Part shown: positions 34,760-58,398 of the stretch, piece after piece
How positions within the stretch are numbered: position 1 is the stretch's first letter
Layout of the letters: the number at the start of each line of letters is the position of its first letter
Origin: an uncultured Erysipelotrichaceae bacterium
GTDB taxonomy: Bacteria > Bacillota_I > Bacilli_A > RFN20 > CAG-826
DNA: 64,000 bases
Assembly: GCA_902800355.1 (NCBI GenBank)
Contig: CADCEE010000003.1
Coordinates: 662-64,661, forward strand
Direction of reading: 5' to 3'
Position numbers and translations under genes: made by a program
Notes under the pieces: model-generated
What the model was told of the DNA's origin: nothing
Seen by the model: only the letters and a program-made list of their open reading frames with translations
Database searches by the model: none

Positions 34760-34801
34760 CTCTTTATATTAATTATTCATTAGTAATATAATATTGCTAA
34801 T

Positions 34802-34887: not shown

Positions 34888-34960
34888 AATATAGCAATAA
34901 TAAAGTAATAAATTACTTTAGATATAGAATATTATATAAGTTAATTGGAGGGGAATAATC

Positions 34961-35791: not shown

Positions 35792-35793
35792 TT

Positions 35794-36306: not shown

Positions 36307-36316
36307 GACGATATTT

Positions 36317-36393
36317 GCCGTCTTAGCTCAATCTGGCAGAGCAACTGAATCGTAATCAGTAGGTTGTAGGTTCAATTCCTATAGACGGCACCA
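36317..36393 (+). tRNA. tRNA-Thr (anticodon CGT)
   Basis: Acceptor GCCGTCT/AGACGGC, anticodon loop ATCGTAA, T-loop TTCAATT, CCA. Confidence 0.88.
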
Positions 36394-36580
36394 ATTAGTT
36401 AATTTAGCCCCCTTAAAAGGGGTTTTATTATTTTTATAAATATTTGTTCTTAACAAATTAATATAAAACCCATAAAATAGTAGCAGTTATTTTATGCAGA
36501 GAATAAACAGACATCGTCTTATTTTTCTAAAGGTGTCTCTTGCTTTGTATAGATAGTTCGTTCTTAAGAAAGGAGAGCTT

Positions 36581-40119: not shown

Positions 40120-40141
40120 GTTATAACTTAATAGATTTAAG

Positions 40142-40171
40142 GCCTAGAAACATTAGTTTCTGGGCTTTTTT
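40142..40171 (+). terminator. intrinsic terminator after the ABC operon
   Basis: gcctagaaac/gtttctgggc 10-bp stem, loop atta, T6. Confidence 0.8.
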
Positions 40172-40193
40172 CTTGTTATACGATAAAAAATAT

Positions 40194-40223
40194 TTGCTTT
40201 TATTAATAATAACTATATATAAT
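40194..40223 (+). promoter_or_regulatory. promoter of the tRNA-Val/tRNA-Gly pair
   Basis: TTGCTT (40194-40199), 18-nt spacer, TATAAT (40218-40223). Confidence 0.45.
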
Positions 40224-40255
40224 ATGTATCGCTGCTTATATAGAAGCAGTGGGTT

Positions 40256-40331
40256 GGGTATTTAGCTCAGCTGGGAGAGCATCTGTTTGACGTACAGAAG
40301 GTCGGCGGTTCGATCCCGTCAGTACCCACCA
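40256..40331 (+). tRNA. tRNA-Val (anticodon GAC)
   Basis: Acceptor GGGTATT/AGTACCC, anticodon loop TTGACGT, T-loop TTCGATC, CCA. Confidence 0.88.
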
Positions 40332-40378
40332 AAATTATGAAAATTCCCCCAAGCGATTGAGGGATTTTTAATAGATAC

Positions 40379-40452
40379 GCACCTGTGATTCAATGGTAGA
40401 ATGTTAGCTTCCCAAGCTGAACACGCGGGTCCGATTCCCGTCAGGTGCTCCA
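40379..40452 (+). tRNA. tRNA-Gly (anticodon CCC) with non-canonical T-loop TCCGATT
   Basis: Acceptor GCACCTG/CAGGTGC, anticodon loop TTCCCAA, T-arm GCGGG TCCGATT CCCGT, discriminator T, CCA. Confidence 0.8.
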
Positions 40453-40463
40453 TTATTAAAAAT

Positions 40464-40488
40464 GGCAGTTAACAAAAACTGCCTTTTT
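40464..40488 (+). terminator. intrinsic terminator after tRNA-Gly(CCC)
   Basis: ggcagtt/aactgcc stem, loop aacaaa, T5. Confidence 0.7.
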
Positions 40489-40508
40489 ATTTAAAATAAA
40501 AATAGTCT

Positions 40509-40967
40509 ATGAAAAAGAATAAAGAAACAGTCCTAGCTTATATAGAAAGAGATGACTCATTTTTAATGCTTTTAAGAAACAAAAAGAAGCATGATATTAA
40601 CGCGAATAAATGGATAGGTGTAGGAGGTCATTTAGAAAAAGAAGAAACTCCTATAGATGCTTTATTTAGAGAAATCAAAGAAGAAACAGGATTAGATGTA
40701 ATTTCTTATAGTAAAAAGGGATTAATTCATTTTAATTATGACGATATATCTGAATTAATGCATTTATACGTTGTTAGCGACTTTAAAGGTAATCTAATTG
40801 AGTGCGATGAAGGTACATTGAGTTGGATTAAAAAAAGTGATTTATTCTCCTTAGAATTATGGGAAGGAGATAAGATCTTCCTTAAGAAGTTAATTAATAA
40901 CGAACCATATTTTGAATTAGAATTAAATTATCTTAAAGATAAATTAATATCATATAGATTTATATAG
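40509..40967 (+). CDS. NUDIX hydrolase (MutT-like)
   Basis: Nudix box GVGGHLEKEETPIDALFREIKEETGL. Confidence 0.82.
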   Translation: MKKNKETVLAYIERDDSFLMLLRNKKKHDINANKWIGVGGHLEKEETPIDALFREIKEETGLDVISYSKKGLIHFNYDDISELMHLYVVSDFKGNLIECDEGTLSWIKKSDLFSLELWEGDKIFLKKLINNEPYFELELNYLKDKLISYRFI

Positions 40968-40990
40968 TAAAAAGTTGGACAATCAGAGAA

Positions 40991-41045
40991 ATATGAATGA
41001 TTGTTCATTTTTATTGTTGCAAATATGAATAGATGTTCATATAAT
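40991..41045 (+). promoter_or_regulatory. ArsR/SmtB-type operators plus promoter of the arsR-ATPase operon
   Basis: Dyads ATATGAAtgattgTTCAT (40991-41008) and ATATGAAtagatgTTCATAT (41023-41042). The second dyad fills the 17-nt spacer between TTGCAA (41017-41022) and TATAAT (41040-41045). Confidence 0.65.
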
Positions 41046-41064
41046 ATACTCGAGGTAAGTAATT

Positions 41065-41403
41065 ATGTATATCAACGAACATGTAATAAATAAGATGCAA
41101 GATACCTTAAAGCTAGCAGGAGATGCGACTAGACTTAAGATTCTATTTTGTCTATTAGATGAATTAGATACTTCTAGTAGTGATCCTCATCATTTGATTG
41201 AAAAATGCGTTAATGATATTGCTTTACAAATTGGATGTAGTCAGTCTTTAGTGTCCCATCAATTAAAAGATTTAAAAGATGGTGATTTTGTTAAATCTAG
41301 AAAAGAAGGCACCAAAATTTATTATTCATTAAAAGATGAACATGTTAAGCAAATCATGCAAATTACTTATGAGCATGTTTTAGAAGGAGAACATCATGAT
41401 TAA
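41065..41403 (+). CDS. ArsR/SmtB family metal-responsive repressor
   Basis: wHTH region LAGDATRLKILFCLL ... IGCSQSLVSHQLKDLKDGDFV. Overlaps the ATPase gene by 8 nt. Confidence 0.85.
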   Translation: MYINEHVINKMQDTLKLAGDATRLKILFCLLDELDTSSSDPHHLIEKCVNDIALQIGCSQSLVSHQLKDLKDGDFVKSRKEGTKIYYSLKDEHVKQIMQITYEHVLEGEHHD

Positions 41404-43531
41404 GAAGAGTTATCATATCACTGGTTTTGATTGCGCGCACTGCGCTCTTAAAAGTGAAAAACATTTAAATAAACATCCTGCCATTAATAATGCAGTAATC
41501 GATTTTGCTAAAGACAAATTATTTATTGAATATAAAGATAAAGAATTAACTATTGATGATATTTTAAAATCAATCGCAGAAGTTGAATCTGATCCAATTG
41601 AAATTGAAGATGCTTCTAAACAAAAAAAGAGATACAAAATCTTTAATAAAGATTTCTGGTATACATTAGCTAGAGTTATTATTGGTGTCACTATTATCTT
41701 AGTGTGCTCGATTGCTTTAACTCATGAACAATTCTATCTTCAATTAGGACTATACGCTTTTGGAATTGTTTTATTAACTTATGATGTTACTTGGAAAGTA
41801 ATTCTTCATATTATTCATAAAGAAAATCCAATTGATGAATCTCTTTTAATTACTTTATGTACGTTAGGTGCCTTTATTGTGGCAATTATCGCTCATGAAT
41901 CTCATTTCTTTATGGAAGCTTTAATGGTGGTGACTTTATATCAAGTTGGCAAGATTATTGAAGGGATTGCCACTAATAAATCTAAAGAGGCTGTCGCTAG
42001 AGCGGTCAATTTAAGAATTGAACACGCAGCTAGATTAGTTAATGGTGAAATTCAAGAAGTCTCTCCAGATATGCTCAATGTAAATGATGTGGTTGTAGTG
42101 ACTGCTGGAGAATATATTCCTGTTGATGCTGTGGTTATTTCTGGAGAAGGTCAAGTTGATACTTCTAGTTTAACTGGAGAATTTGTTCCGGTATCAGCAA
42201 AAGAAGATATGGAATTATATTCTGGATATTTATTAAAAGAAGGAACTTTAAATTTAAGAGTTATTAGAACTTATCAGAATTCTGCGGTTAGTAAGATTAT
42301 TGATTTAATTTCTAATAGCGGGGCTAAAAAATCTAAGGCTGATGAATTTGTTTCTAGATTTGCTAAATGGTACACCCCAATTGTCTTTATTGTTTCTTTA
42401 CTTGTTGCAGTTATTGGAGGAGCAATTACCAATAACTGGAAAGACTGGATTATCTTAGGGCTTAAGATGATGGTAGTAGCATGTCCTTGTGCAATTGTTA
42501 TTTCCGTTCCACTTGCTTATTTTGCCGCCTTAGGATTAGCGAGTAAAAACGGTATTGTCTTTAAAGGCACTAACTATATTGATGAGCTTAATCGTATGGA
42601 AAAACTAGTGACTGATAAGACTGGTACTTTAACTAAAGGCGTCTTTGAAATAAGCAAAATTGTTCCTATCGGAGTTAAAGAGGATTTCTTACTTGATGTG
42701 ATGTCTAGTGTTGAATCTTTAAGTAACCATCCTATTGGAAAAACTATAGCAAAATTAAGAAAAAGCTCAGTTTTGAGCGAAAATTTTGAAGAATTAGCAG
42801 GTTTAGGGGTATGCGCTACTTATAACGGCGATATGGTCTTAATTGGTAATTCTAAGCTTTTAAAAGAATATGAAATTAACTTTGAAGAAGTTGATGAAAA
42901 CGGCGTAGTTGTATACTGCGTTTATGATGGTAAATACATTGGATATTTAGTGATATCTGATGAGGTTAGAGAGAGCAGTAAAGAGTTAGTTTCATCACTT
43001 CAAAATAGTGGAGTGGATGTTGTTCTACTTACTGGAGATAAAGAACATAATACACAAAAATTATGTAATGAATTAGGAATTAAAAAATATTATTCTTCTT
43101 TACTCCCAGATCAAAAGATTGAATGTTTAGAAAAAGAACTTTCTAATAAATACGCGACTGGTTTTATTGGGGATGGTATCAATGATGCTGCCTCCATCAA
43201 AAGAGCGGATATTGGCTTTGCAATGGGTGCAATTGGTAGTGACGCTGCGATTGAAAGTGCTGATGTTGTGATCATGAATGATGAACCAATGAAAGTTTAT
43301 GACTCTATTAGAATTGCTAAGATTGCTAGACATACATCAGTATTTAATATTATCTTTGCGTTAAGTGTAAAAATTGGAGTAGAGTTAGCGGCAATTATTA
43401 CTAGCTTATTAGGAAAGGGCGAACTTATTCCAATGTGGTTAGCGGTATTAGCAGACACTGGATTAACTGTATTAATGGTCATTAATTCTTTATTAATCTT
43501 ATATAGAAAAATTAAACGTAAAAGTGTTTAA
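41396..43531 (+). CDS. cadA: heavy-metal translocating P1B-type ATPase (Cd/Zn/Co-type)
   Basis: N-terminal HMA domain with GFDCAHC, TM CPC motif (VVACPCAIV), DKTGTLT, GDGINDA. Confidence 0.9.
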   Translation: MIKKSYHITGFDCAHCALKSEKHLNKHPAINNAVIDFAKDKLFIEYKDKELTIDDILKSIAEVESDPIEIEDASKQKKRYKIFNKDFWYTLARVIIGVTIILVCSIALTHEQFYLQLGLYAFGIVLLTYDVTWKVILHIIHKENPIDESLLITLCTLGAFIVAIIAHESHFFMEALMVVTLYQVGKIIEGIATNKSKEAVARAVNLRIEHAARLVNGEIQEVSPDMLNVNDVVVVTAGEYIPVDAVVISGEGQVDTSSLTGEFVPVSAKEDMELYSGYLLKEGTLNLRVIRTYQNSAVSKIIDLISNSGAKKSKADEFVSRFAKWYTPIVFIVSLLVAVIGGAITNNWKDWIILGLKMMVVACPCAIVISVPLAYFAALGLASKNGIVFKGTNYIDELNRMEKLVTDKTGTLTKGVFEISKIVPIGVKEDFLLDVMSSVESLSNHPIGKTIAKLRKSSVLSENFEELAGLGVCATYNGDMVLIGNSKLLKEYEINFEEVDENGVVVYCVYDGKYIGYLVISDEVRESSKELVSSLQNSGVDVVLLTGDKEHNTQKLCNELGIKKYYSSLLPDQKIECLEKELSNKYATGFIGDGINDAASIKRADIGFAMGAIGSDAAIESADVVIMNDEPMKVYDSIRIAKIARHTSVFNIIFALSVKIGVELAAIITSLLGKGELIPMWLAVLADTGLTVLMVINSLLILYRKIKRKSV

Positions 43532-43542
43532 TATAGTGGAAT

Positions 43543-43619
43543 GCGCCATTAACTCAACTGGATAGAGTGTCAGACTTCGAATCTGGAAGTTGAGGGTTCG
43601 AGTCCTTCATGGCGCGCCA
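43543..43619 (+). tRNA. tRNA-Arg (anticodon TCG)
   Basis: Acceptor GCGCCAT/ATGGCGC, anticodon loop CTTCGAA, T-loop TTCGAGT, CCA. Confidence 0.88.
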
Positions 43620-43632
43620 CAATATTTGATTA

Positions 43633-43658
43633 GGCCACATAAAAGTGTGGTCTTTTTT
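43633..43658 (+). terminator. intrinsic terminator after tRNA-Arg
   Basis: ggccacat/gtgtggtc stem (two G-U), loop aaaa, T6. Confidence 0.65.
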
Positions 43659-43671
43659 AATTTTTTTAAAA

Positions 43672-43733
43672 TTTTTTCGCAAATTTTTGAAAATTACCAC
43701 TCTTATATATATGAGAGGTATTTTTATGAATTC
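43672..43733 (+). repeat. 62-nt promoter/RBS/start-codon cassette, copy B (drives the DUF1016 pseudogene)
   Basis: Matches 14130-14191 at 49 of 62 ungapped positions. Contains AAATTTTTGAAAATT (43681-43695). Confidence 0.7.
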
Positions 43734-44148
43734 AATTATCGACACTAAGTTCTTAAGCGAAATTAAGGAACTGGTTAACTCTGCCAAACAAAGAGTAGTA
43801 ACTTCAATCAACATCGCTATGGTTTATACCTATTATGAGATTGGAAGACGAATAGTGAAACAAGAATAGAAAGGGAATAATCGGGCTAAATATGGCAAAG
43901 ATCTTTTGAATAAATTGTCTTTTGAATTAACAAAAGAGTTTGGGACAGGTTATTCATTGACCAATTTAAAATTAATTAGAAAGTTCCATTTACTTTATAG
44001 CAATAAAAAAAGTCAACCACTGGTTGACCATTCTAAATTCTTGAATTTTAAAAATTATCCACTTACAAACGATAGACATCGATTCCTTCCAAATTTGGGT
44101 CTAAAAAGAAACGATGGAAATTTTCGCGAAAAGATAAAAAGAAAATGA
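43726..44148 (+). pseudogene. remnant of a DUF1016/YhcG-family PD-(D/E)XK nuclease gene (N-terminal part only, in-frame TAG)
   Basis: MNSIIDTKF...VYTYYEIGRRIVKQE-TAG-KGNNRAKYGKDLLNKLSFELTKEFGTGYSLTNLKLIRKF matches the YhcG N-terminal domain and resembles the intact paralog at 55950-56960. ORFs 43645-43869 and 43906-44148 share one frame, split by the TAG at 43867. The nuclease domain is absent. Confidence 0.65.
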
Positions 44149-44165
44149 AAATAATCAGAAAAAAA

Positions 44166-44217
44166 TTTAAATAAAAAAGAACGGCGACCCGAAACCTAAT
44201 TCGTACATAGCCGTTCT
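44166..44217 (-). terminator. candidate terminator for deoD (minus strand)
   Basis: agaacggc/gccgttct 8-bp stem (44178-44217). On the minus strand it is followed by ttttttatttaaattttt. Confidence 0.5.
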
Positions 44218-44284
44218 TCTATTAATAAAGTAGCATAGCTTATTGTTGTTATCAATGTTAATTATAATTTTTGAAATACAAAGT

Positions 44285-45004
44285 TTAGCAATAATGTTCA
44301 GCAGTCGCTATAGCGAGTTCAATCATTCTTGCTAAGCCAAAGGCTCTTTCTTCGGATGTGAGCTTTTCATCATGATTAATGAAGCTGTCTGTGACTGTTA
44401 ATAAGCATAATGCTCTTTTACCAAATCTAGCGGCGTTAGCGTATAAGGCATAAGATTCCATCTCCACACCCATCACGCCTAAGGCAGCCCATCTTTTCCA
44501 GATTTCTGGATCGTAATCATAGAAGACATCAGCAGCGAAGATATTTCCTCCGTGATATGGAATATTAGCTTTTTTTGCTTCTTCATAAGCGGTGACCATT
44601 AAATCAAAGTCTGCAACTGCAGAATATGTTCCATTTAATTTAAATTGACTCATCCAGTTACTATCAGTACAAGCTCCAGAACAAATTAATACATCTTTTA
44701 AACTGATGTTTGGTTGATATGTTCCACATGTACCTACTCTAATAATGATTTCTACTCCATAACTCATAAAGAGTTCACTAGAATAAATACCAATAGAAGG
44801 CATACCCATTCCTGAGGCCATAACTGATAATTTTTTATTATTTTTAGTGTATCCGGTATATCCTAAGATACCTCTAACATTTGTTACTTCTTTATAATCG
44901 TGTAAATAAGTTTCAGCGATCCACTTTGCTCTAATTGGATCTCCAGGCATTAAAACAACCTTAGCGAAATCGCCTTTTTCAGCATTTATATGAGGTGTTC
45001 CCAT
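44285..45004 (-). CDS. deoD: purine nucleoside phosphorylase DeoD-type
   Basis: MGTPHINAEKGDFAKVVLMPGDPIRAKWIAE, GMGMPSIGIYS, VEMES. Confidence 0.93.
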   Translation of the reverse strand: MGTPHINAEKGDFAKVVLMPGDPIRAKWIAETYLHDYKEVTNVRGILGYTGYTKNNKKLSVMASGMGMPSIGIYSSELFMSYGVEIIIRVGTCGTYQPNISLKDVLICSGACTDSNWMSQFKLNGTYSAVADFDLMVTAYEEAKKANIPYHGGNIFAADVFYDYDPEIWKRWAALGVMGVEMESYALYANAARFGKRALCLLTVTDSFINHDEKLTSEERAFGLARMIELAIATAEHYC

Positions 45005-45106
45005 ACTATATCTCCTTTATTTGCACATCTATTGTACAACAATAACTAGTTATCACCAAACTTTTTCTATATTGAAGTTTAAATAGATAATCAGTAAACT
45101 GATTTT

Positions 45107-45514
45107 ATGAAAAAAGTTAGAAATGCCTATGTATTAGAAACTAGTGATTTAAAAATCCTAGAGACAGTGTCTTTACTAAATAAAGATAACTATTATCCTC
45201 TACCAGAAGGAGTTTATAAAATCCTTTCTGGAATAGATGATGAAGAAACTAAAAATTTTAGTGAACTATTAACATATAAGACATTAATATCTTATAACTC
45301 GAAAAAAGTATCACGTTTAATAGTGATGCTTATTAGATATCACTATTTAGAAAGAGTTTATGATCCTAGTAGCGATAAACTCTATTTAAAAGTTGCTCCA
45401 AAAGGAGAAACTGAATTAGTGAAATATCATAAAATACATAAATATAAATTTGCAAAAAAAGAGGTTAACTTTGAGCCGACAATTGTGAAACTCGATTTGA
45501 CTAAAATTAAGTAA
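45107..45514 (+). CDS. hypothetical protein, possibly an RQC-like winged-helix domain
   Basis: 135 aa. The pattern GVYKILSGIDDEE...ISYNSKKVSRLIVMLIRYHYLERV...LKVAPKGE resembles RecQ C-terminal/HTH_40-type domains. Weak, from memory. Confidence 0.3.
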   Translation: MKKVRNAYVLETSDLKILETVSLLNKDNYYPLPEGVYKILSGIDDEETKNFSELLTYKTLISYNSKKVSRLIVMLIRYHYLERVYDPSSDKLYLKVAPKGETELVKYHKIHKYKFAKKEVNFEPTIVKLDLTKIK

Positions 45515-45575
45515 TAAATTGATAGTCTAGTCCAATAATTGTAAAATTATTAAGCTGACTATAGGAGGATAGAAT

Positions 45576-46352
45576 ATGTTATTTGCTTGGGATACGATGC
45601 ACATTGCACAATTTATAATTTCGTTATTTGTCATTATTGGAATGTATGGATTCCTATTTTTGATGTATAGCAAGATTGTTAAACGTCTTGCTGGATATTT
45701 ATTTGTTTCTATCTCCTTTGTTGTTGTTTTATTAACATTTATCTTCAACCTTACCTATGTCTTTGTTGCTTGTGTTGGTTTATCTTCTGTTGGAGTCACT
45801 ATCTCTTTGTTTACCAACTTAGGAGACTTAAGACAATTCTTAGCTAATCCATTTAAAGGTAGTAGAGTGAAATCTGGTAAGATGGAAGTTGAGAAGATTT
45901 ATAATAGAGAGTTATTATATAAAACCATTGAAAAAGCGGTCATTAATTTAAGCAAAACTAGAACTGGTGCGATTATGACTTTTGAAAAGAATACTTCTTT
46001 ACAAGATGTCATTAAAAATGGTGTCGCTGTTAGAGCACCGGTATCTGCGGAATTGTTAGTGACCATCTTCTATCCAGGAACTCGTTTACACGATGGAGCG
46101 GTTGTCATCCACGGTAATGAAATTGTCGCTGCTAGTGTTTTCTATACCCCAACTACTAAGCCATTTGCTGGTAAATATGGTAGCCGTCATAGAGCCGCTT
46201 TAGGTATCTCAGAAATCTCTGATAGTGTGACTGTTGTTGTTTCTGAAGAAACCGGAAGAATTTCTTTTGCGGTCAACGGGCAACTTGATCCAGTCGACCA
46301 AGAATCCTTCTTAAGAGTGTTTGAAAACTACATGGATGGAGTGGCTCAATAA
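45576..46352 (+). CDS. cdaA: diadenylate cyclase CdaA
   Basis: Three N-terminal TM helices, then a DAC domain with TGAIMTFE, RLHDGAVVI, GSRHRAALGISE, VVVSEETG. taggagg RBS. Confidence 0.9.
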   Translation: MLFAWDTMHIAQFIISLFVIIGMYGFLFLMYSKIVKRLAGYLFVSISFVVVLLTFIFNLTYVFVACVGLSSVGVTISLFTNLGDLRQFLANPFKGSRVKSGKMEVEKIYNRELLYKTIEKAVINLSKTRTGAIMTFEKNTSLQDVIKNGVAVRAPVSAELLVTIFYPGTRLHDGAVVIHGNEIVAASVFYTPTTKPFAGKYGSRHRAALGISEISDSVTVVVSEETGRISFAVNGQLDPVDQESFLRVFENYMDGVAQ

Positions 46353-46363
46353 TAGGTTAATAA

Positions 46364-46972
46364 ATGGATTCCAAACAAGTTTACGATTTTATACTCAAAG
46401 TTCAATCTATTAGCAAGATTGGACTTGTTTATTCTAAAGACCCTTATGCGTTAACTAATTACAAAGAGTTAAACGATTTAAGCACAAAATTTTTAGAAGA
46501 TTTTTTAGAAGTCAAATTTGACCGCCCTAATTATTTCCAAAGGGATATCTACCCGACACCAAATGTTTCTGTGAGGACTATCATCTTTAACGAAGACAAA
46601 TCTAAGGTCTTAATGGTTAGAGAAGCCGCTTTACATGCATATTCTCTTCCTGGGGGCTGGGCGGATTTATATGATTCACCTTCTCAAACTGCAAAAAATG
46701 AATGTAAACAAGAAGCAGGAGCGGAAATAGAAATTGTTAGACTTGTTGGTCTAACTAGTAGAACTCCATTTAAAGCTCCAACTTCTATTCCAGAATATGT
46801 TGCAATATTTGAGGCTAAATTAACCAAGTTAAATAAAGAACATGAATATGAGACTGATGATGTCGGATTCTTCGATATTGATAATCTTCCAGAGATATCA
46901 AAAAAGACATCTAAAGGTGAGTTATTAAGGTTTATTAAGGCCGCGAAAAACGGAGAAACAATATTTGATTAA
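46364..46972 (+). CDS. NUDIX hydrolase with Nudix N-terminal domain (ADP-ribose pyrophosphatase-like)
   Basis: N-terminal KVQSISKIGLVYSKDPYALTNYKEL domain. Nudix region LPGGWADLYDSPSQTAKNECKQEAG. Confidence 0.75.
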   Translation: MDSKQVYDFILKVQSISKIGLVYSKDPYALTNYKELNDLSTKFLEDFLEVKFDRPNYFQRDIYPTPNVSVRTIIFNEDKSKVLMVREAALHAYSLPGGWADLYDSPSQTAKNECKQEAGAEIEIVRLVGLTSRTPFKAPTSIPEYVAIFEAKLTKLNKEHEYETDDVGFFDIDNLPEISKKTSKGELLRFIKAAKNGETIFD

Positions 46973-47014
46973 AATGACCTTTAAATAATGGTCATTTTTT
47001 GTTAATATACAGGC

Positions 47015-47626
47015 ATGATTTTATTAACTCCTGGTCAAACTTTATATATATCTTTAGCAACAGTAGGAGTGCTATTAATCTTATTTTTATTCGCTTTTCT
47101 ATATTATAGAAATCGATATGTTAGAAAACACGCTAGAGAATTAACATATTTAAAACTTAGTAGAATATGTGAGCATAATGACTATTTATTATTAAATGAC
47201 TATCGTATTGATTTTGATGACTCTAATACAGGTCTAATTGATCACTTAGTGATTTCAAATAAATACATCATTATCATCAGTGTCTTTTCTATTTCTGGAG
47301 TGTTATCTGGAAAATTCCAAGGCGAAGAATTGGTGAATGTGAATAAAAAAGGAACTAGTATTGTTGCTAATCCAATTAATTACAACATTAACTTAACAAA
47401 AAGATTATCTTTGTTTAACGATTTAAATCATTCCTTCTTAAAAGGCTTAGTGGTCATTAATAATGACTCTGATATTAAAATTGAAGGACATAGTGACCAA
47501 TTCCAAATCGTTAAAAGAAAAGATTTAGCAAAGACTATTAAGAAATTTGATCAAGAGAATATCAAAAATCTCAATGAAGAAAGTATTGTTCGCTTTATTA
47601 ATAAATTAAACGAGGAGAATAAATAA
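47015..47626 (+). CDS. NERD domain-containing membrane-anchored protein
   Basis: N-terminal TM. NERD-like core HNDYLLLNDYRIDFDDSNTGLIDHLVISNKYIIIIS. Confidence 0.65.
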   Translation: MILLTPGQTLYISLATVGVLLILFLFAFLYYRNRYVRKHARELTYLKLSRICEHNDYLLLNDYRIDFDDSNTGLIDHLVISNKYIIIISVFSISGVLSGKFQGEELVNVNKKGTSIVANPINYNINLTKRLSLFNDLNHSFLKGLVVINNDSDIKIEGHSDQFQIVKRKDLAKTIKKFDQENIKNLNEESIVRFINKLNEENK

Positions 47627-47658
47627 AAAACAACCCTTACGAGTTGAATTAATCGTTT

Positions 47659-47732
47659 TGGAGCAGGCGACGGGAATCGGACCCGCATAACTACCTTGGC
47701 AAGGTAGTGTTCTACCACTGAACTACGCCTGC
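47659..47732 (-). tRNA. tRNA-Gly (anticodon GCC) with non-canonical T-loop TCCGATT
   Basis: Minus-strand read: GCAGGCG TA GTTC AGTGGTA GAAC A CTACC TTGCCAA GGTAG TTAT GCGGG TCCGATT CCCGT CGCCTGC T CCA. Confidence 0.82.
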
Positions 47733-47751
47733 AATTCAAAATTGCTAAATT

Positions 47752-47779
47752 ATTATAACAAAACTAGTTGATTATGCAA
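47752..47779 (-). promoter_or_regulatory. promoter of tRNA-Gly(GCC)
   Basis: On the minus strand: TTGCAT (plus coordinates 47774-47779), 16-nt spacer, TATAAT (47752-47757). Confidence 0.5.
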
Positions 47780-47818
47780 TATAATTTGTAAGAATTATTT
47801 AAAAAGGAGAAAGCTAAG

Positions 47819-49480
47819 ATGGTGTCAGATAAAGAATTAGCAGAATTAATATTCCCTGAAGTAAAAGAAAGTATTGATGATTTAGAGGCTAGATACCCAC
47901 TTCGTCAACTACAAGAGGGTGCGGAAGTTACTAGATTCGCTCCAAGCCCAACAGGATTTTTACATACTGGTAGTCTATTTACTTCGATGGTTTGTCATAA
48001 AGTCGCTGGTGACTCTAATGGAATCTTTTATGTTCGACTTGAAGATACTGACACTAAAAGAGAAATTGAAGGTAGTGGACTCCAACTATTAGAACAATTG
48101 AAACTATTTAATATTGTCCCAAATGAAGGTTATTTAGGTGACCATCAAGTAGGAAAATATGGACCATATGTTCAATCCGAAAGAGCGGACATCTATAAAG
48201 TGGTCATTAAACATTTATTAGAAGAAGGTAAAGCTTATCCTTGTTTCTGTTCACAAGAAGAACTTGATGATATTAGAGCCAAGCAAGAAAAAGCAAAAAT
48301 TATTCCAGGATATTATGGACCATTTGCGAAATATCGTTATTTAAATAACGACGAAAGAAAAGAAAGAATTTTAAAAGGTGATCCATACGTTATCCGCTTT
48401 AAATCATCTGGAAATCATATTCATAAGATCAAAGTCACTGATTTAGTGCACGGCAATTTTGAAATCGCGGAAAATGATATGGATATCGTTATCTTTAAAA
48501 GTGATGGTTTACCAACTTATCACTTCGCTCACGTTTGTGATGATCACTTTATGAGAACAACCACAGTTATCCGTGGAGAGGAGTGGATTGCAAGTTTACC
48601 AATTCACTTAGAATTATTTAAGGCCTTAGGCTGGACCGCTCCTAAATATGCCCATTTACCAGTTATTATGAAAATTGGAGAAAACGGCAATAAACGTAAA
48701 TTATCTAAAAGATTAGATAATGAAGCGGCAGTTAGCTATTTCTTAAAAGATGGTTATCCTAGCGAAGCCCTTATTATGTATTTAATGACAATCGCTAATT
48801 CTAATTTTGAAGAATGGATCTTTGAACATAAATTTGAGCATATGGAAGAATTCAAATTCTCCTTTGATAAGATGTCTTTAGAAGGCGCTTTATTTGATAT
48901 GGGTAAACTTAATTTCTTCTCTAGAGAAATTTTATCTAAGAAGTCTAAAGAAGAAATGTTAGAGATGACATTAAAATATTCTAAAGAATATGATGAAAAA
49001 CTTTATAATTTAGTGTCATCTGACCCTGAATACTTTAAAAAGATTATTAACATCGAAAGAGAAAAAGAAAATCCTAGAAAAGACTATGAGAAATTAGGTG
49101 GATTATATGACCTTATTTCCTTCTTCTATAAAGATTTATATGAAGAATATGTTAAGACTAACGGGCTTGTCTATAATGAGAAATTCTCGTTAGAACAAGT
49201 TAAAGAAGTTTTATCCGCTTTAAAAGAGTTAGACATTACTAAAGATGAACAAACTTGGTTCTCTCAAATGAAATCTATTGGCGAATCTCTTGGCTTCTCA
49301 AGTGATAGAAAAGCCTTTAAGGCTAATCCAGAAGCCTATAAAGGCATGATTGGTGATGTCGCTGAAATATTAAGAATCACCTTAACAACTAAAAAGAATT
49401 CCCCTAATTTATATTATGTGATGCAAGTCCTTGGATTAGAGGAATGCCATAGAAGAATTAATCAAGTTCTTTCTAAATAA
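47819..49480 (+). CDS. gltX: glutamate--tRNA ligase (long form)
   Basis: RFAPSPTGFLHTGS (HIGH-type) and KLSKR motifs. aaaggag RBS. Confidence 0.9.
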   Translation: MVSDKELAELIFPEVKESIDDLEARYPLRQLQEGAEVTRFAPSPTGFLHTGSLFTSMVCHKVAGDSNGIFYVRLEDTDTKREIEGSGLQLLEQLKLFNIVPNEGYLGDHQVGKYGPYVQSERADIYKVVIKHLLEEGKAYPCFCSQEELDDIRAKQEKAKIIPGYYGPFAKYRYLNNDERKERILKGDPYVIRFKSSGNHIHKIKVTDLVHGNFEIAENDMDIVIFKSDGLPTYHFAHVCDDHFMRTTTVIRGEEWIASLPIHLELFKALGWTAPKYAHLPVIMKIGENGNKRKLSKRLDNEAAVSYFLKDGYPSEALIMYLMTIANSNFEEWIFEHKFEHMEEFKFSFDKMSLEGALFDMGKLNFFSREILSKKSKEEMLEMTLKYSKEYDEKLYNLVSSDPEYFKKIINIEREKENPRKDYEKLGGLYDLISFFYKDLYEEYVKTNGLVYNEKFSLEQVKEVLSALKELDITKDEQTWFSQMKSIGESLGFSSDRKAFKANPEAYKGMIGDVAEILRITLTTKKNSPNLYYVMQVLGLEECHRRINQVLSK

Positions 49481-49510
49481 ATATAAACGGTGGTATAATT
49501 ACCACCAACT

Positions 49511-49587
49511 GGCCCAATGGAGAAGCGGCTTAACTCATTGCCCTCTCAAGGCAACATTCACGGGTTCGAATCCCGTTTGGGTCACCA
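49511..49587 (+). tRNA. tRNA-Glu (anticodon CTC)
   Basis: Acceptor GGCCCAA/TTGGGTC, anticodon loop CTCTCAA, T-arm ACGGG TTCGAAT CCCGT, CCA. Overall close to the Bacillus tRNA-Glu layout. Confidence 0.88.
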
Positions 49588-51055: not shown

Positions 51056-51831
51056 TTCACCAAGACTCTATAGACTTAATGGACGTTTTTGAATTTCTAA
51101 AAGAAGTTAAAGACAAATCAGTTGATTTAGCTATTATTGATCCGCCATATAATCTTAATCAAGGAGATTGGGATACATTTAAAAGTCATAGTGAATTCAT
51201 GAAATTCACAACCAAGTATCTTAATTTAGTGATTAATAAACTGAAGGATAATGGATCTCTCTATATTTTTAATACAGCTTTTAACTCGGCTTTTATTTTG
51301 TCTTATTTAGTCGAAGCAGGTTTGGATTATAGAAACTGGATTGTTTGGTATAAAAAAGATGGTTTCAGTGCGTGCAAAAAGAAATATGTTAATAGCCAAG
51401 AGACTATTTTATATTTTACAAAATCAAAAAAAGACTTTGTCTTTAACTGCGATGATATAAGAGAACCATATTTATCAAGCGACAGAATAGCTGCTGCTCA
51501 ATCAAAGGGCATTTTGAAAAATGGGAAGAGATGGTTTCCAAATCCTAATGGAAAACTTTGCCCTGATGTTTGGGAGTTCACGTCAGTTAGACATACAAAT
51601 AAGAAAAATGGAAAAACGGTAAAACAATCACACCCTACTCCAAAACCTGAGCCAATGATTGAAAGAATGATAAAAGCAAGTTCTAACGATGGCGACTTAG
51701 TTTTGGATCTTTTCAGTGGTACAGGAACTACCGCTTATATTGCAAAAAAACTTAATCGACATTTTATCGGTTGTGAAAACAACAATGAATACTATCGAAT
51801 CATTAAGGAGCGACTGAAAAATGGGAATTAG
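51052..51831 (+). CDS. DNA methyltransferase, beta-class N6-adenine-like (DPPY)
   Basis: AIIDPPYNL then VLDLFSGTGTT. Overlaps the upstream MTase by 4 nt. Confidence 0.88.
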   Translation: MIHQDSIDLMDVFEFLKEVKDKSVDLAIIDPPYNLNQGDWDTFKSHSEFMKFTTKYLNLVINKLKDNGSLYIFNTAFNSAFILSYLVEAGLDYRNWIVWYKKDGFSACKKKYVNSQETILYFTKSKKDFVFNCDDIREPYLSSDRIAAAQSKGILKNGKRWFPNPNGKLCPDVWEFTSVRHTNKKNGKTVKQSHPTPKPEPMIERMIKASSNDGDLVLDLFSGTGTTAYIAKKLNRHFIGCENNNEYYRIIKERLKNGN

Positions 51832-53053
51832 GGAGAATCTTGCTAAAATCGATCCAAGCAAAAAATGTCTGCGCTTTTTAGGCGAAAGAATACTTGACGT
51901 TAACTATCGAGGAATTCAACTTTCTCAACACAATAGGTATGATGTGGTTTTTATAACAACAATGCTTACTGAAATGTATAATCTCGTTGGTCGCAACAAG
52001 ATGTTTATAAGAACTTCTGATCTAAGCAAAAGGCCATATAATTACCCAGAAGAAAAAGTTTATGCACAATATGTAAATAATCTATGTGCCAAACTTGAAA
52101 GATGTACTCAGGATTCGGTGAGAAAAAACTTCTTTGTTGATTTACATAGAATGGGTTTTATCTATAGATACAATGAACATGGATACAAAATTGGACCTTT
52201 TGAGAGAAGTCAGATTAAATCTGTTTCGCTGACCCCGCTTGGAGCAGAGCTTGTGAAAAACGCAGCTGATATTTTTCAAAGAAATTTAATTTATACAAAA
52301 GCGATTGACACTTTGACAAATGGCTTAGCAGATGAATTATTGGATGTGGTTTCAATAAACGATAAGTTAACCATGACAGAATTTCAATTTTTCATGTCTT
52401 TTATTGATCAAAAACTAAATGGTCATTTGTATACAAAATCTGAATTGGTTGATTATGTATTAGAATTTAGGAGTATGAGCGGATTTCAAAGACAAGCAGT
52501 GGTGGATATTGTTGCCGAGTATTGTGATCCTAAGAAATTTGGTGGAAGCAAATTGAACAAACGTGATTTCCACAACTGGAAAAATGAAACCCAGCAAATT
52601 TTTATGCTTCTGGACCAAACTGTTTTGTTTGAATTGAGACAAGAAAAACTTGTTATTCGTTTAGGTGAGGCCAGTTTATTTGACGACGATACAAAACTCA
52701 AGAGATCACTCAAAGAAAAAGAAGAATACTTTAAAAATCACGAAGTCAAAAAACAACCAGGATTCGAATTGCACCACGTTATACCTTTATTAACTGCTAA
52801 ATCAAAAAACGAATTTGCAGTTTTGGATGTTTGGGAAAACATGGTTTACATTGATGGTTATACACACTCCAAGATTACTCATACAAATAATAAAAATACA
52901 AACCTTTCGTTCGATAATGACGACATTGTGCTTACAGATCCAGCTGGTGTTGTTGACGAGATTGATTGTGAAAAAGACACAAATGTCATTTATAACACCA
53001 AGAACAAGGCAGTGATGAAAGAATTTAATGAATCGGCACTAAATGCTATATAA
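51821..53053 (+). CDS. putative restriction endonuclease with C-terminal HNH-like motif
   Basis: Overlaps MTase 2 by 11 nt (same operon). C-terminal GFELHHVIPLL...WENMVYIDGYTHSKITH resembles a beta-beta-alpha-Me/HNH site. I do not recognise the N-terminal 300 aa. Confidence 0.5.
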   Translation: MGIRENLAKIDPSKKCLRFLGERILDVNYRGIQLSQHNRYDVVFITTMLTEMYNLVGRNKMFIRTSDLSKRPYNYPEEKVYAQYVNNLCAKLERCTQDSVRKNFFVDLHRMGFIYRYNEHGYKIGPFERSQIKSVSLTPLGAELVKNAADIFQRNLIYTKAIDTLTNGLADELLDVVSINDKLTMTEFQFFMSFIDQKLNGHLYTKSELVDYVLEFRSMSGFQRQAVVDIVAEYCDPKKFGGSKLNKRDFHNWKNETQQIFMLLDQTVLFELRQEKLVIRLGEASLFDDDTKLKRSLKEKEEYFKNHEVKKQPGFELHHVIPLLTAKSKNEFAVLDVWENMVYIDGYTHSKITHTNNKNTNLSFDNDDIVLTDPAGVVDEIDCEKDTNVIYNTKNKAVMKEFNESALNAI

Positions 53054-53073: not shown

Positions 53074-53159
53074 GTTCCATGAGGTGTAGAATTGTTTAAA
53101 ATCTTTACACCCTGCCAACTTAATTAAATAGGATTGATACAAAATATTTATCCTTTTTT
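53074..53159 (+). repeat. hairpin repeat R2
   Basis: 53115-53159 ccaacttaattaaataggattgatacaaaatatttatcctttttt resembles R1. 53096-53121 and 53126-53143 recur in R3. The hairpin plus T-run (53130-53159) can terminate the R-M operon. Confidence 0.7.
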
Positions 53160-53168
53160 ATTTTGTGC

Positions 53169-55614: not shown

Positions 55615-55720
55615 GTTCCAAAGGTCTCAAGTCATTAAAATATTTACACCATGCCAAATTCACTTATAATACTATGTATTATAAAATAGGATTGATACAA
55701 ACGTGTCAGTCCTTTTGTTT
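55615..55720 (+). repeat. hairpin repeat R3 (bidirectional terminator)
   Basis: 55635-55660 matches R2 53096-53121 at 23/26. 55684-55701 matches R2 53126-53143 at 18/18. The insert ataatactatgtattat resembles the R1 stem. The 11-bp stem aggattgatac/gtgtcagtcct (55688-55713) is followed by ttttgtttt. Confidence 0.7.
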
Positions 55721-55960
55721 TATTTCTTCAGCTTCAATAAAATCAACCCAGCTTCCATAGTCATAATTTCTTTTTGTTTCAGAAGTGTGAATTATTCTAA
55801 CGTAAGGAACTTTTCTTTTTATATCATCGGGCAATATTTCTAATGGATTTATATTATCAATGTTTTCTTCCTCAACGGTTGCCGTCTTGTACACTATTTG
55901 TATTCCATAAACGCTTCCTCTACCCCATTTTAAAATGAATCTTTTCATGTTATTTATCAT
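55706..55960 (-). CDS. hypothetical 84-aa protein, translationally coupled to the DUF1016 gene
   Basis: Overlaps the 3' end of the DUF1016 gene by 11 nt. I recognise no family. Coding status rests on ORF length and the operon context only. Confidence 0.35.
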   Translation of the reverse strand: MINNMKRFILKWGRGSVYGIQIVYKTATVEEENIDNINPLEILPDDIKRKVPYVRIIHTSETKRNYDYGSWVDFIEAEEIKQKD

Positions 55961-56960
55961 CGCTTTCTTCTAATTCATCAATTGTTGGAAGAGATGATTT
56001 GTATTTTTCTGGAATCAAATTTGATAATTGATATTCGGATATGCCAACTGGTAAACCTACCCCATTAATTATGTGTTTAGCTAATGAATTGTCTTTGTTC
56101 TTACAAACCAAAATTCCAACTGTTTTGTTATCTATTTCACCCTTTAGTGTTGCGTCAATAGCGGCGACATAGCCAATTAGTTGTCCCATATGTTCTGGCT
56201 TGAATTGACCAGTTTTAATTTCTATCACTACATAGCAATGTGCTTTAATGTTATAAAACAATAAATCGCAATACATTTCGGTGTCGCCTAGTAGCAAGCG
56301 AACTTCTTTTCCAACATACGCAAATCCATTTCCTAATTCCAAAAGGAATGATTCAATATGCTTTGTCAGTTCATCTTTTAACTCCTTTTCGTCGTAATTT
56401 TCTCTTATTGCTAGAAAATCAAACTCATAAGGATCCTTCATTATTTGATTTGTTATTTCGATATTAACAGATGGTAGCGATACTTTAAAATTATCTACAG
56501 TGTTTTGATTTCTTTCAAAAACATTTGCTAATATGCGACTTTCCAAATCATATCTAGACAAATTGTTTTCAACTGTTGTTTTGATATAGAACAAACTTTT
56601 CTCTATTGTCTTGCATTTATCAATGATGATTCTATGGTGCCCCCAAGGTACTAATAGCAATTGTTCCACAACTTGTGGGAAAATATGTTTATACAGAGTA
56701 TAAAATTTTTCCGCATATCTCAGATTTTGATGATTTAATCCTTTGGCGTTAGGAATAGCCTTTTTAAGTTCAATGCTCAACAAATCATAGAAATGATTTC
56801 CGTAACTTGCTTTGAATGATGTTTTAGAAATCTCTTTACCTAATTCGTAATAGAATTTAATTAGATTACTGTTGACATGGATAGCGGCTTTAATTTGAGC
56901 CTTTTTATAATTTTGGGAAAGGCTTTCAACCCATTTTTGAAATTTTGTGTCGATCAACAT
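55950..56960 (-). CDS. DUF1016/YhcG-family PD-(D/E)XK nuclease
   Basis: YhcG N-terminal domain (ELGKEI...YGNHFYDLLSIELKK...NLRYAEKFY) and C-terminal nuclease core GFAYVGKEVRLLLGDTEMYCDLLFYNIKAHCYVVIEIKTGQFKPEHMGQLIGY. taggagg RBS. Confidence 0.85.
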   Translation of the reverse strand: MLIDTKFQKWVESLSQNYKKAQIKAAIHVNSNLIKFYYELGKEISKTSFKASYGNHFYDLLSIELKKAIPNAKGLNHQNLRYAEKFYTLYKHIFPQVVEQLLLVPWGHHRIIIDKCKTIEKSLFYIKTTVENNLSRYDLESRILANVFERNQNTVDNFKVSLPSVNIEITNQIMKDPYEFDFLAIRENYDEKELKDELTKHIESFLLELGNGFAYVGKEVRLLLGDTEMYCDLLFYNIKAHCYVVIEIKTGQFKPEHMGQLIGYVAAIDATLKGEIDNKTVGILVCKNKDNSLAKHIINGVGLPVGISEYQLSNLIPEKYKSSLPTIDELEESDDK

Positions 56961-57002
56961 TGTTTTATCCTCCTATATCATCGACAAGGTGATTTAGAAG
57001 GA

Positions 57003-57332
57003 AATAAAAACCATCCAACCTAAAACACCTTTTGTAACTAACTGCTGATATCCCTATCAACCATAGTTACTGGTGTTTCATCACTGATTCAGTTGGATGG
57101 CCTCTGATTCAAATATTAACTATTTGTGTGGAGCGTGGATAATAATGTGTGAGCATTCATTGTTTTCTGCTCTCCTAACACATTAAGTTATCTTCTGGGC
57201 GATGCTTTCCACAATGCAAGATCCTAACACATCCAATCTTGCAGTCTCTATTAGGGTGCCCTATCGTGTACCTGCGTATGGTCGACTTTGTTTATAACTA
57301 GTTCATAGCGCCGATAGTCTGCTAATAGATAC
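57003..57332 (-). ncRNA. candidate structured RNA of about 330 nt (independent ncRNA or long regulatory leader of the DUF1016 operon)
   Basis: No ORF of 60 aa or more on either strand. The minus-strand promoter at 57339-57367 points into it. It has six hand-found helices, including three nested ones. It ends in a 90-nt hairpin (57011-57100, GGGA apical loop on the minus strand) followed by TTTTTATTT. Higher G+C than the flanks (27/60 in 57241-57300 by hand count). Confidence 0.4.
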
Positions 57333-57338
57333 TTTTTT

Positions 57339-57367
57339 ATAATAACATTTACTATAATTATTCTCAA
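57339..57367 (-). promoter_or_regulatory. promoter for the structured RNA / DUF1016 unit
   Basis: On the minus strand: TTGAGA (plus coordinates 57362-57367), 17-nt spacer, TATTAT (57339-57344). The first helix starts about 10 nt downstream. Confidence 0.45.
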
Positions 57368-57630
57368 TTAATTTATTAATAAATTATTGTATTAAATAAC
57401 ATTGAACATAGAGTGCTACATGGAATTTGGGTCACAGGTTGTGACCTAATTTCATTTATTAATAAATTATTGTATTTAAATGATATTTGAATATATGTTG
57501 CTCCACGGAATTTTGAGAACAGGTTGTTCCCCAATTTCATTTATTAATAAATTATTGCATTTAAATGATGTTTGAATATATGACGCTCCATAGAATTTGG
57601 TGCACAGTCCGTGCACTAATTTCATTTTCA
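57364..57630. repeat. three tandem 83-85 bp repeats plus a truncated fourth start
   Basis: The conserved block atttattaataaattattg starts at 57371, 57454 and 57539, with a partial copy at 57624. Each unit ends in a hairpin: ggtcaca/tgtgacc (57430-57446), gagaaca/tgttccc (57515-57531), gtgcac/gtgcac (57600-57616). Confidence 0.9.
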
Positions 57631-57648
57631 AAGCAAAAATTAAATTCT

Positions 57649-57680
57649 AGCAATCTTGAGCTATATACAATTGCTTTTTT
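57649..57680. terminator. bidirectional terminator-like hairpin
   Basis: agcaat/attgct stem, 15-nt loop, flanked by ttttttaaaaaa. Confidence 0.55.
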
Positions 57681-57692
57681 AAAAAATGTTTA

Positions 57693-57735
57693 AGAGGGTT
57701 GATAGATAACATCGCCCTAGCCTTTTTTATTTCTT
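57693..57735 (+). repeat. possible fourth, degenerate copy of the R-type hairpin repeat
   Basis: agagggttgata...ccttttttatttcttt shares the AGGxTTGATA 5' arm and the CCTTTTTTATTT tail with R2/R3. Folds as aggg(t)-gat/atc-g-ccct plus a T-run. Confidence 0.35.
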
Positions 57736-57768
57736 TATTTTTACTTCAGTATTAGAATAGTTGAGAAT

Positions 57769-58398
57769 ATGAAATATCTTGTTATTATCTCAACTTTATT
57801 TGTAATTGGCTCATTAATTGGCTGGGTTATTGAATTATTCTTCAGAAGATTTGTTTCGCAGCACAAATGGATGAATCCTGGTTTTTTAATGGGACCATAT
57901 TTACCAATATATGGCTTTGGAGTCATTGTCTTATATGCGGTTAGTAATATTCCTTTAGGAATTACTAATCACGCAGTTGATATTGTTGTTCGTATTCTAA
58001 TTATCGGAGTAGGGATGACAGTTGTGGAATTTTTAGCGGGATTAATATTTATTAAAGGTTTAAAAGTTAAGCTTTGGGATTATAGTGATCGTAAAGGAAA
58101 TATTATGGGTATTATTTGCCCTTCGTTTTCTTTAATTTGGTTAGCGGTTGGATCCCTATATTATTTCCTAATTAATCCGTTTTTAGTAAGTGGAATTTCC
58201 TGGATTAGTGAAAATTTAATTTACACTTATTTTGTAGGAGCAGTTATAGGAGCGATGGTGGTGGATTTTGCTTATTCAATCCACTTAGCCACTAAAGCAA
58301 AATATTATAAAGAACTTGCTGACTTAAGATTTGAAGACTTCAAAAAAGAATTACGAAATAGAATTAAACAACTCCGTAAAACAAAAGAAGATATCTAG
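57769..58398 (+). CDS. polytopic membrane protein (putative ABC-transporter type IV / DUF1113-like family)
   Basis: IGSLIGWVIELFFRR...NPGFLMGPYLPIYGFG pattern typical of that family, from memory. About 6 TM. Confidence 0.55.
   Translation: MKYLVIISTLFVIGSLIGWVIELFFRRFVSQHKWMNPGFLMGPYLPIYGFGVIVLYAVSNIPLGITNHAVDIVVRILIIGVGMTVVEFLAGLIFIKGLKVKLWDYSDRKGNIMGIICPSFSLIWLAVGSLYYFLINPFLVSGISWISENLIYTYFVGAVIGAMVVDFAYSIHLATKAKYYKELADLRFEDFKKELRNRIKQLRKTKEDI

Follow-up and report, generated by a model that had tools for sequence, protein, structure and literature searches.

A larger, modular RNA around the COG3943 motif precedes interchangeable toxin or candidate defence genes in related rumen bacteria

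The 64,000-nucleotide (nt) stretch of DNA analysed here (hereafter, the window; contig CADCEE010000003.1 of an uncultured Erysipelotrichaceae bacterium) encodes a nuclease of the DUF1016 family that is preceded by an 808-nt gap. A preliminary description of the locus had read this gap as holding a structured RNA of about 330 nt, running from promoter to terminator and matching no known family. What is this RNA, and does it serve the nuclease, or is its role more general? We conclude that it is a larger variant of a known orphan motif, the COG3943 RNA motif (Rfam RF02941), which forms its 3′ third. In related rumen bacteria it is found before toxin or defence genes that replace one another, and its most likely role is hence that of a shared on/off leader for such genes. 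Unless another locus is named, coordinates are window positions, and the leader and both of its downstream (“cargo”) genes lie on the minus strand.

The list of open reading frames (ORFs) bears out the 808-nt gap, with no internal ORF of 60 amino acids (aa) or more; a 61-aa ORF antisense to a CmpB-like gene overlaps its last 28 nt. When the coordinates were re-derived, the promoter, nested helices, hairpins, terminator, and Shine-Dalgarno sequence (SD) of the preliminary description were each found in place. A promoter consensus scan gave 10 of 12 matches plus a TG extended -10, and a TATAAT-like -10 box stands at a constant distance from the first helix (H1) in every homologous locus, the sequence further upstream being unconserved. 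Judged from the promoter, the RNA would start at ~57332 and extend to ~57003 on the minus strand, as a multi-domain leader of ~330 nt. A 346-nt stretch folds with a minimum free energy z-score of -3.85, and none of 100 dinucleotide shuffles folds as well; together with the covariation in 36 homologues described below, this bears out a structured RNA that spans promoter to terminator. Coding alternatives were rejected: an ORF antisense to the 5′ domain (57202-57297, plus strand) is not kept in homologues, where it covers 10-86 codons and often has no start, and the sense-strand ORFs have starts that fall inside the promoter. The elements of the leader are as follows (bp, base pairs; anti-SD, anti-Shine-Dalgarno sequence).

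57339-57367, minus strand: predicted promoter; -35 box TTGAGA (57367-57362), 17-nt spacer, TG (57347-57346), -10 box TATTAT (57344-57339)
57195-57330, minus strand: 5′ domain, absent from Rfam, ~135 nt, helices H1-H5
57329-57322 with 57254-57247, minus strand: H1, 8 bp
57317-57312 with 57266-57261, minus strand: H2, 6 bp
57311-57304 with 57280-57274, minus strand: H3, 7 bp plus a bulge
57298-57290, minus strand: H4, mini-hairpin
57243-57236 with 57222-57215, minus strand: H5 hairpin (57243-57215), loop UGGAUGUGUUAGG, conserved loop GUGUUAGG
57213-57208 with 57132-57127, minus strand: H6, long-range helix of UGUGGA with UCCACA, joining the 5′ domain to the COG3943 motif
57192-57188 with 57142-57138, minus strand: H7, long-range helix of GAUAA with UUAUC; all five pairs change on both sides
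57184-57144, minus strand: variable cap hairpin, enclosed by H6 and H7
57025-57137, minus strand: COG3943 RNA motif, RF02941 (cmscan, 92.0 bits, E = 1.4e-15)
57126-57122 with 57114-57110, minus strand: P1
57099-57096 with 57082-57079, minus strand: P2, 4 bp, with a long loop in the window
57076-57025, minus strand: P3, long
57002-57100, minus strand: predicted intrinsic terminator; long hairpin (57100-57011), then U-run UUUUUAUUU (57010-57002)
57100-57092 with 57019-57011, minus strand: outer stem of the terminator, 9 bp, CCAUCCAAC with GUUGGAUGG, enclosing P3
56961-57001, minus strand: post-terminator platform; anti-SD CCUUCUA (57001-56995), second (A)CACC box (56992-56988), SD (56975-56969)
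56975-56969, minus strand: SD UAGGAGG, with the nuclease ATG at 56960

The claim that the RNA matches no known family does not survive for its final third, where RF02941 scores above its gathering score (71.8 bits) and the match spans model positions 1-108 of 108, without truncation. The novelty is gone for 57025-57137, because a confident Rfam match is the result that the preliminary description had itself named as removing it. P1, P2, and P3 are all present in the cmscan alignment, with a few non-canonical pairs flagged in P2 and P3, and the motif blocks CACGCUCCACAC, GGCCAUC, AACACCAG, and GGUGU are found in the window. The likeness to RF02941 lies in the three hairpins plus the conserved CGCUCCACAC, GGCCAUC, ACACCAG, and GGUGU. 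The genomic position also agrees with that of the family: the gene that follows is DUF1016 in the window and, in related loci, RhuM-Fic, of the COG3943/RhuM type. The COG3943 motif emerged from a comparative screen (Weinberg et al. 2017, PMC5737381) whose main text does not mention it. No mention of RF02941 or the “COG3943 motif” by name was found in the literature searched, and the titles and abstracts of the papers found on DUF1016/YhcG hold nothing on an RNA.

The window RNA nevertheless differs from the Rfam model at both ends. It extends ~200 nt further 5′, with a covarying domain and a swappable cap, and on its 3′ side it runs on into a terminator, a competitor of P2, and then into the anti-SD. 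The 5′ domain gave no match in Rfam by cmscan up to E = 10. Its link to the motif, H6, is paired in 99.5%, with G-C replaced by A-U in nine sequences and U-A by G-C or C-G in 11, and it engages bases that the Rfam model treats as unpaired: CACGCUCCACAC is single-stranded in the 108-position model, whereas here the same bases pair in H6 with the upstream strand. This pairing explains the strong conservation of the “unpaired” CGCUCCACAC. The 5′ domain, the H6/H7 link, the terminator/anti-SD platform, and the layout of a constant leader with variable cargo are all absent from Rfam and from the literature searched.

How far does this architecture extend beyond the window? An RF02941 match is present 70-175 nt upstream of the ATG at each of nine orthologous DUF1016 loci (80-92% protein identity), which stem from metagenome-assembled genomes of the rumen or gut. 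A tenth DUF1016 locus, L009, is decayed, with an IS110-type transposase gene between SD and ATG and a deletion in the 5′ domain (L009 positions 1100-3000); L092 is also decaying, and in it a shortened leader runs directly into what is left of DUF1016. The RNA was not found upstream of DUF1016 homologues at 48% identity or less. With a 20-mer from the 5′ block used as bait, we recovered one contig from a viral collection and 51 metagenome loci, nearly all of which, where the contig permits, show the motif landmarks with unchanged spacing. RF02941 scores are 74-107 bits over the nine DUF1016 loci and the 18 of 20 metagenome loci that pass the threshold, and the conserved unit is seen in ~60 related loci overall. 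Loci selected by protein only all have the leader as well, namely the 10 DUF1016 loci and four further RhuM-Fic chromosomal sites; at each of the latter, which were chosen by protein similarity, the 3′ domain and a 5′ domain lie upstream. When viral contigs were scanned for the motif pattern, all matches but L029 were due to chance; this contig is labelled viral, but the genes around it, for giant leucine-rich-repeat surface proteins, do not show a phage context. The leader had no blastn match in the sequenced plasmid and phage collections, and none of the loci examined has a second copy of it.

Conservation is concentrated in the RNA. Over the nine loci, mean pairwise identity is 0.91 in the 5′ block and 0.87 in the COG3943 motif, compared with 0.79 in the coding sequence, 0.59 at third codon positions, 0.49 in the cap (57184-57144), and 0.38 upstream of the -10 box. 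Covariation was assessed in 36 distinct sequences over seven helices and 43 pairs, with the variable cap masked by N; the three nested helices and the hairpin of the preliminary description are among the seven. Of all cells, 93.7% are paired, compared with 27-46% when partners were slid by 1-3 columns; pairs that change on both sides number 25 of 43 (8-13 in the slid controls); and the covariation score is 0.467, as against 0.111 at most in the controls, with 0 of 500 shuffles as high. The RNA thus has the conserved, covarying structured domain expected of an attenuating riboswitch, with all controls lower over the 43 pairs. Since G-U exceeds A-C by 79 to 23, the constraint acts on the minus strand as RNA.

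The peripheral parts of the molecule are more fluid. In other loci, the cap hairpin is swapped for other hairpin modules, or for a short plain loop. At two of the four RhuM-Fic sites chosen by protein, another arm, of ~75 nt, stands in place of the H2-H4 arm of the 5′ domain and of the near-invariant CAAAGUCGACCAUACGCAGG within it, while H1, the H5 hairpin with its GUGUUA loop, and H6 are retained (L117-L124, at about 2092-2232 in L117, and L125-L128). The RNA is therefore modular, and the existence of a second arm type also means that the 20-mer sampling was biased towards one of them. The preliminary description had proposed alternative pairing of two copies of the 10-mer CCTAACACAT. We rejected this as the core mechanism: the second copy is confined to a subgroup-specific form of the cap hairpin, found only in the window, L004, L071, and L088, and the alternative pairing is consequently not conserved. 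On paper, the loop of H5 (GUGUUA) could form a pseudoknot with the UAACAC found where P3 begins to pair, and GGUGU another with a downstream ACACC; in both, all observed changes lead only to wobble pairs.

The genes downstream of the leader, in the window and across the related loci, are as follows.

55950-56960, minus strand: cargo gene 1, DUF1016_N + YhcG_C PD-(D/E)XK nuclease, 336 aa (Pfam)
55706-55948, minus strand: cargo gene 2, 80-aa protein of no known family, ATG 2 nt past the nuclease stop
26 loci: DUF1016 nuclease (PADLOC PDC-S02)
10 metagenome loci: RhuM-Fic (PADLOC PDC-S23/S05)
7 loci: unnamed “YHFR” family, 110-120 aa (unmatched in Pfam and PADLOC)
4 loci: BrnT with BrnA, the latter a protein antitoxin
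3 loci: DUF4314, followed by DUF1016 in L073 and L082

The nuclease is assigned with confidence by Pfam (PF17761, E = 2.5e-30, 105.8 bits, cut-off 32.8; PF06250, E = 4.2e-53, 179.8 bits, cut-off 32.5) and belongs to the candidate defence family PDC-S02 of PADLOC (E = 8.8e-124). The small coupled ORF is unrecognised and lies directly after the nuclease, as first described; its likely start is at 55948 (80 aa) and not at 55960 (84 aa), and 80 aa is also the length of the gene call in identical metagenome contigs. This protein follows DUF1016 in 14 of 27 loci. Its 137 homologues form a narrow family, all at least 64% identical among the 120 matches listed. It has no Pfam or NCBIfam match, and its best PHROG match is non-significant (E = 0.026). 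AlphaFold2 predicts a beta-rich fold (mean predicted local distance difference test score, pLDDT, 94.7) that has no match in the PDB (best E = 0.46).

The same RNA stands upstream of four other unrelated gene families, and the earlier suggestion that it is a partner of the nuclease is not supported. The unit that is independent of cargo consists of the -10 box, GGUGUUUU, the 3′ strand of the terminator, the U-run, and CUCCUUUUGAGGACACC; next comes an SD region that is particular to each type of cargo. All five unrelated cargo families have the -10 box, U-run, anti-SD, and ACACC box conserved in front of them. The cargo is always co-oriented with the leader, and its ORF begins 55-113 nt past the end of P3.

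How might one leader govern such different genes? The 90-nt “four-segment hairpin” of the preliminary description proved to be P3 inside an extra 9-bp stem, plus the U-run. The core of this terminator is paired in 96.7% (26 sequences), and its distal part covaries (CCAAC/GUUGG, CCUC/GAGG, and CAC/GUG). P2 (CAUC(C) with GGAUG) and the terminator (GGCCAUCC... with ...GGAUGGC) draw on one and the same 5′ strand, and each can be formed in at least 96% of cells. The terminator and P2, which is a helix of the conserved domain, thus exclude each other, as in an attenuator, with thin covariation for the switch itself. In L101, a change of CCAUC to CCGUC is matched both in P2 (GAUG to GACG) and in the terminator (GGAUGG to GGACGG). 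The predicted fold of a nascent RNA that lacks the terminator 3′ strand is the P1-P2-P3 of Rfam, and once that strand is added the terminator is predicted to displace P2, with a gain of 11-19 kcal/mol. Beyond the U-run, a CUCCUUUUGAGGACACC-like sequence is kept regardless of the downstream gene. The anti-SD:SD duplex has a mean energy of -9.9 kcal/mol over 43 distinct loci, compared with -5.6 kcal/mol for shuffles, and L005 carries a compensatory CCCUC/GGGGG in it.

Starting from what the analysis shows, namely a conserved and covarying structure, two alternative pairings that overlap, and independence from cargo, we lean, with some caution, towards the leader being a cis-acting transcription attenuator with a second, translational lock. 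H6 and H7 would clamp the 5′ domain onto the supposedly single-stranded CGCUCCACAC of the motif, with the swappable hairpin capping the two helices, and P1, P2, and P3 would form during transcription. Once transcribed, GUUGGAUGG (57019-57011) would take CAUCC from P2 and complete a terminator that is predicted to be 11-19 kcal/mol more stable. By default, RNA polymerase would then halt at the U-run and the 330-nt RNA would be released. Some signal, be it a small molecule, a protein, or an RNA, would stabilise the 5′ domain and P2 and allow read-through into the cargo; in the read-through transcript, the anti-SD just past the terminator could still mask the SD. With cargo that is exchanged in this way, such a signal should be common to all the cargo types and not peculiar to the nuclease. 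Of the possibilities raised by the preliminary description, the one in which expression depends on read-through is hence the one we favour, given the competition between terminator and conserved hairpin, the conserved anti-SD beyond the terminator, and the constant orientation and spacing before every cargo. A more specific version, which we offer tentatively and regard as possible rather than probable, is that the RNA is a generic sensor of one infection or stress signal, gating a whole set of toxin or anti-phage genes that can stand in for one another; its constant sequence would also serve as the anchor by which cargo ORFs are swapped at a fixed chromosomal site, and COG3943 would be only the expression-platform end of a modular RNA (more than 330 nt) that has its ligand-binding core in the 5′ domain.

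Several points weigh against an attenuator. The transcription start, termination, read-through, direction of switching, and signal are all inferred from sequence. The covariation between P2 and the terminator is slight, in that most positions are invariant and one or two sequences are compensated. The counts of paired and doubly changing positions were made on helices derived from the same sequences, which favours high counts, and the metagenome loci were picked with a 20-mer from the 5′ domain. SD masking is absent or weak in L054, L056, L068, and L103, and L029 has no anti-SD. The BrnT-BrnA cargo apparently has its own promoter and operator, which leaves the SD of the leader orphaned. The cargo is coherent as toxin or candidate defence genes (PDC-S02, PDC-S23/S05, and BrnT), and no metabolite is hinted at. 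Lastly, Rfam types RF02941 as “Gene; sRNA” and not as cis-regulatory. At the BrnT-BrnA loci themselves (L071, L083, L088, and L079), a TATAAT box and a palindrome precede brnT, and in L083 the orphan SD is followed by a mini-ORF of eight codons.

The main rival to an attenuator is that the terminated RNA of ~330 nt is itself functional, as a stable small RNA (sRNA) acting in trans, for example as an RNA antitoxin of toxic cargo, with read-through being incidental. A strong default terminator should make the short RNA the main product, the Rfam typing points the same way, the cargo is toxin-like or comprises candidate defence genes, and there is a precedent in the abiF-motif RNA from the same 2017 screen (10.1101/2025.04.15.648962). 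However, a single RNA would have to neutralise five unrelated proteins, one of which, BrnT, is already served by the downstream protein antitoxin BrnA, and the conservation of the anti-SD and ACACC box past the terminator would be needless for a free-standing sRNA. The constant orientation and spacing relative to the cargo, and the lack of internal tandem repeats of the type III kind, also speak against it, and on balance we consider an sRNA unlikely, while taking it seriously.

A different possibility is that conservation acts mainly at the level of DNA, with the leader serving as a constant “landing pad” for exchange of cargo by recombination and the RNA fold being secondary. At two chromosomal sites, the leader stays the same and the ORF alone differs. 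L062 and L074 share flanking genes and leader, and their homology stops exactly at the cargo start and resumes at the cargo stop, the one having DUF1016 and the other RhuM-Fic at this site. Likewise, the window and L088 have a divergent CmpB-like gene, tandem repeats, and the leader in common, and differ in cargo (DUF1016 and BrnT, respectively). Moreover, a ~70-nt repeat flanks some cassettes and transfer RNA (tRNA) genes abut about half of the loci. Yet the compensatory changes and the 79 G-U against 23 A-C indicate selection on a single strand and not on duplex DNA, the positions of promoter, terminator, and anti-SD are conserved, and no integrase or recombinase is found nearby. We therefore regard a landing pad as the primary explanation as improbable, and note that a role as recombination anchor can coexist with regulation.

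The weakest alternative is suggested by a large structured RNA lying immediately upstream of a PD-(D/E)XK nuclease gene. In this reading, the DUF1016 nuclease would use the RNA as its guide or scaffold, much as IscB uses HEARO/omega RNA. It can be given very little credence, as the same RNA precedes RhuM-Fic, BrnT, DUF4314, and the small unnamed protein, as there is no hypervariable unstructured segment (the 5′ end lies inside H1 and the variable region consists of structured hairpin modules), and as DUF1016 homologues at 48% identity or less occur without it.

With an attenuating leader still the reading that we prefer, we turn to the edges of the cassette, where the following features were found at the 3′ side.

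55688-55714, both strands: terminator-like hairpin at the 3′ edge of the cassette (terminator scan)
55640-55714, unstranded: repeated element of ~70 nt (AAAAGGA..TTGTATCAATCCTATTT..TTGGCA.GGTGTAAA), containing the edge hairpin, directly after the 80-aa ORF

A second copy of the ~70-nt element lies 2.5 kb away, at 53111-53165. The element marks the 3′ end of the cassette in a subset of loci, and in L005, L054, and L068 it is present, in the same orientation, on both sides of the cassette of promoter, leader, and cargo; it may be a cassette boundary or a recombination site. The flanks of the loci examined hold ordinary housekeeping genes, and an integrase or recombinase was not found in them.

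About 24 of the 51 loci have tRNA genes right next to the cassette, usually in convergent orientation and directly past the cargo; these loci include L006, L007, L010, L011, L055, L057, L060, L062, L074, L085, L090, L097, L098, L101, and others. A tRNA-Trp gene follows the 110-120-aa cargo, and Pro, Arg, and Cys tRNA genes are found in L062 and L074. In the window, the nearest tRNA gene is ~6 kb from the cassette, and nine tRNA genes lie within ~19 kb at 30738-49584. A 410-aa ORF (51821-53053) adjoins a MerR-type gene. Two related loci have riboswitches nearby that are unrelated to the leader, for cyclic di-GMP (c-di-GMP-I) and S-adenosylmethionine (SAM) (L062, 6609-6734; L076, 6885-6974).

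Immediately upstream of the leader promoter are three tandem copies of an 85-bp unit (57371-57627), each with the palindrome AATTTATTAATAAATT (57370-85, 57453-68, and 57538-53). The outer two copies contain a GC hairpin and a T-run, and are scored as plus-strand terminators by scan (57427-49 and 57597-619). The repeats are also found upstream of the leader in L004, L071, and L088; in other leader subgroups the palindromes that overlap the -35 box differ, and they may be operators.

How does this RNA compare with known systems? Attenuating riboswitches and T-box leaders share with it a promoter, a folded sensor-like domain, a mutually exclusive antiterminator and terminator, and an SD, all within long leaders. 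No riboswitch or T-box model matched up to E = 10 (cmscan, 56900-57800), and the window RNA differs in that its genes are of the toxin or defence type and not of a metabolic pathway, and in that its peripheral arms are modular (the variable cap and the second version of the H2-H4 arm).

Another parallel is RCd22, an abiF-motif RNA and type III-like RNA antitoxin of Clostridioides difficile that binds and neutralises the AbiF toxin in cis and in trans, and that lowers expression at the level of transcription (10.1101/2025.04.15.648962). Both RNAs are structured, come from the same kind of screen, and lie directly upstream of a toxic defence gene; however, RCd22 has one cognate protein, AbiF, whereas the window RNA precedes five families, one of which has a protein antitoxin of its own. 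Other classes were rejected. A type III toxin-antitoxin RNA does not fit, there being no tandem repeats within the RNA (the sole array lies upstream of the promoter) and five cargo families; nor does a guide RNA of the HEARO/omega type, since structured modules make up the variable region and some of the cargo is not a nuclease. The P1 and P2 loops do not, by inspection, keep the A1/G4 hexaloop pattern of an ANTAR-type two-hairpin target. An integron-like cassette was considered as well: no integrase is found in the flanks, and the repeated hairpin element of ~70 nt closes the cassette on its 3′ side in some loci and brackets it in L005, L054, and L068.

The indication that the orphan COG3943 motif is the 3′ third of a much larger modular RNA, complete with promoter, antiterminator/terminator pair, and anti-SD, gives the correct construct for probing it. 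The cargo pattern suggests a single RNA-level control over defence and toxin genes in these rumen Bacilli, and it suggests the conserved leader as a fixed socket at which cargo is exchanged. A ligand or binding factor, if there is one, would reveal what the cells sense before such genes are switched on. Regulators of the BrxR/CapW type, which carry WYL domains, are DNA-binding proteins encoded beside the diverse defence systems that share them. By functional analogy, the window RNA would resemble them in being one module placed before many defence cargos, with an RNA leader in the position that a protein occupies there.

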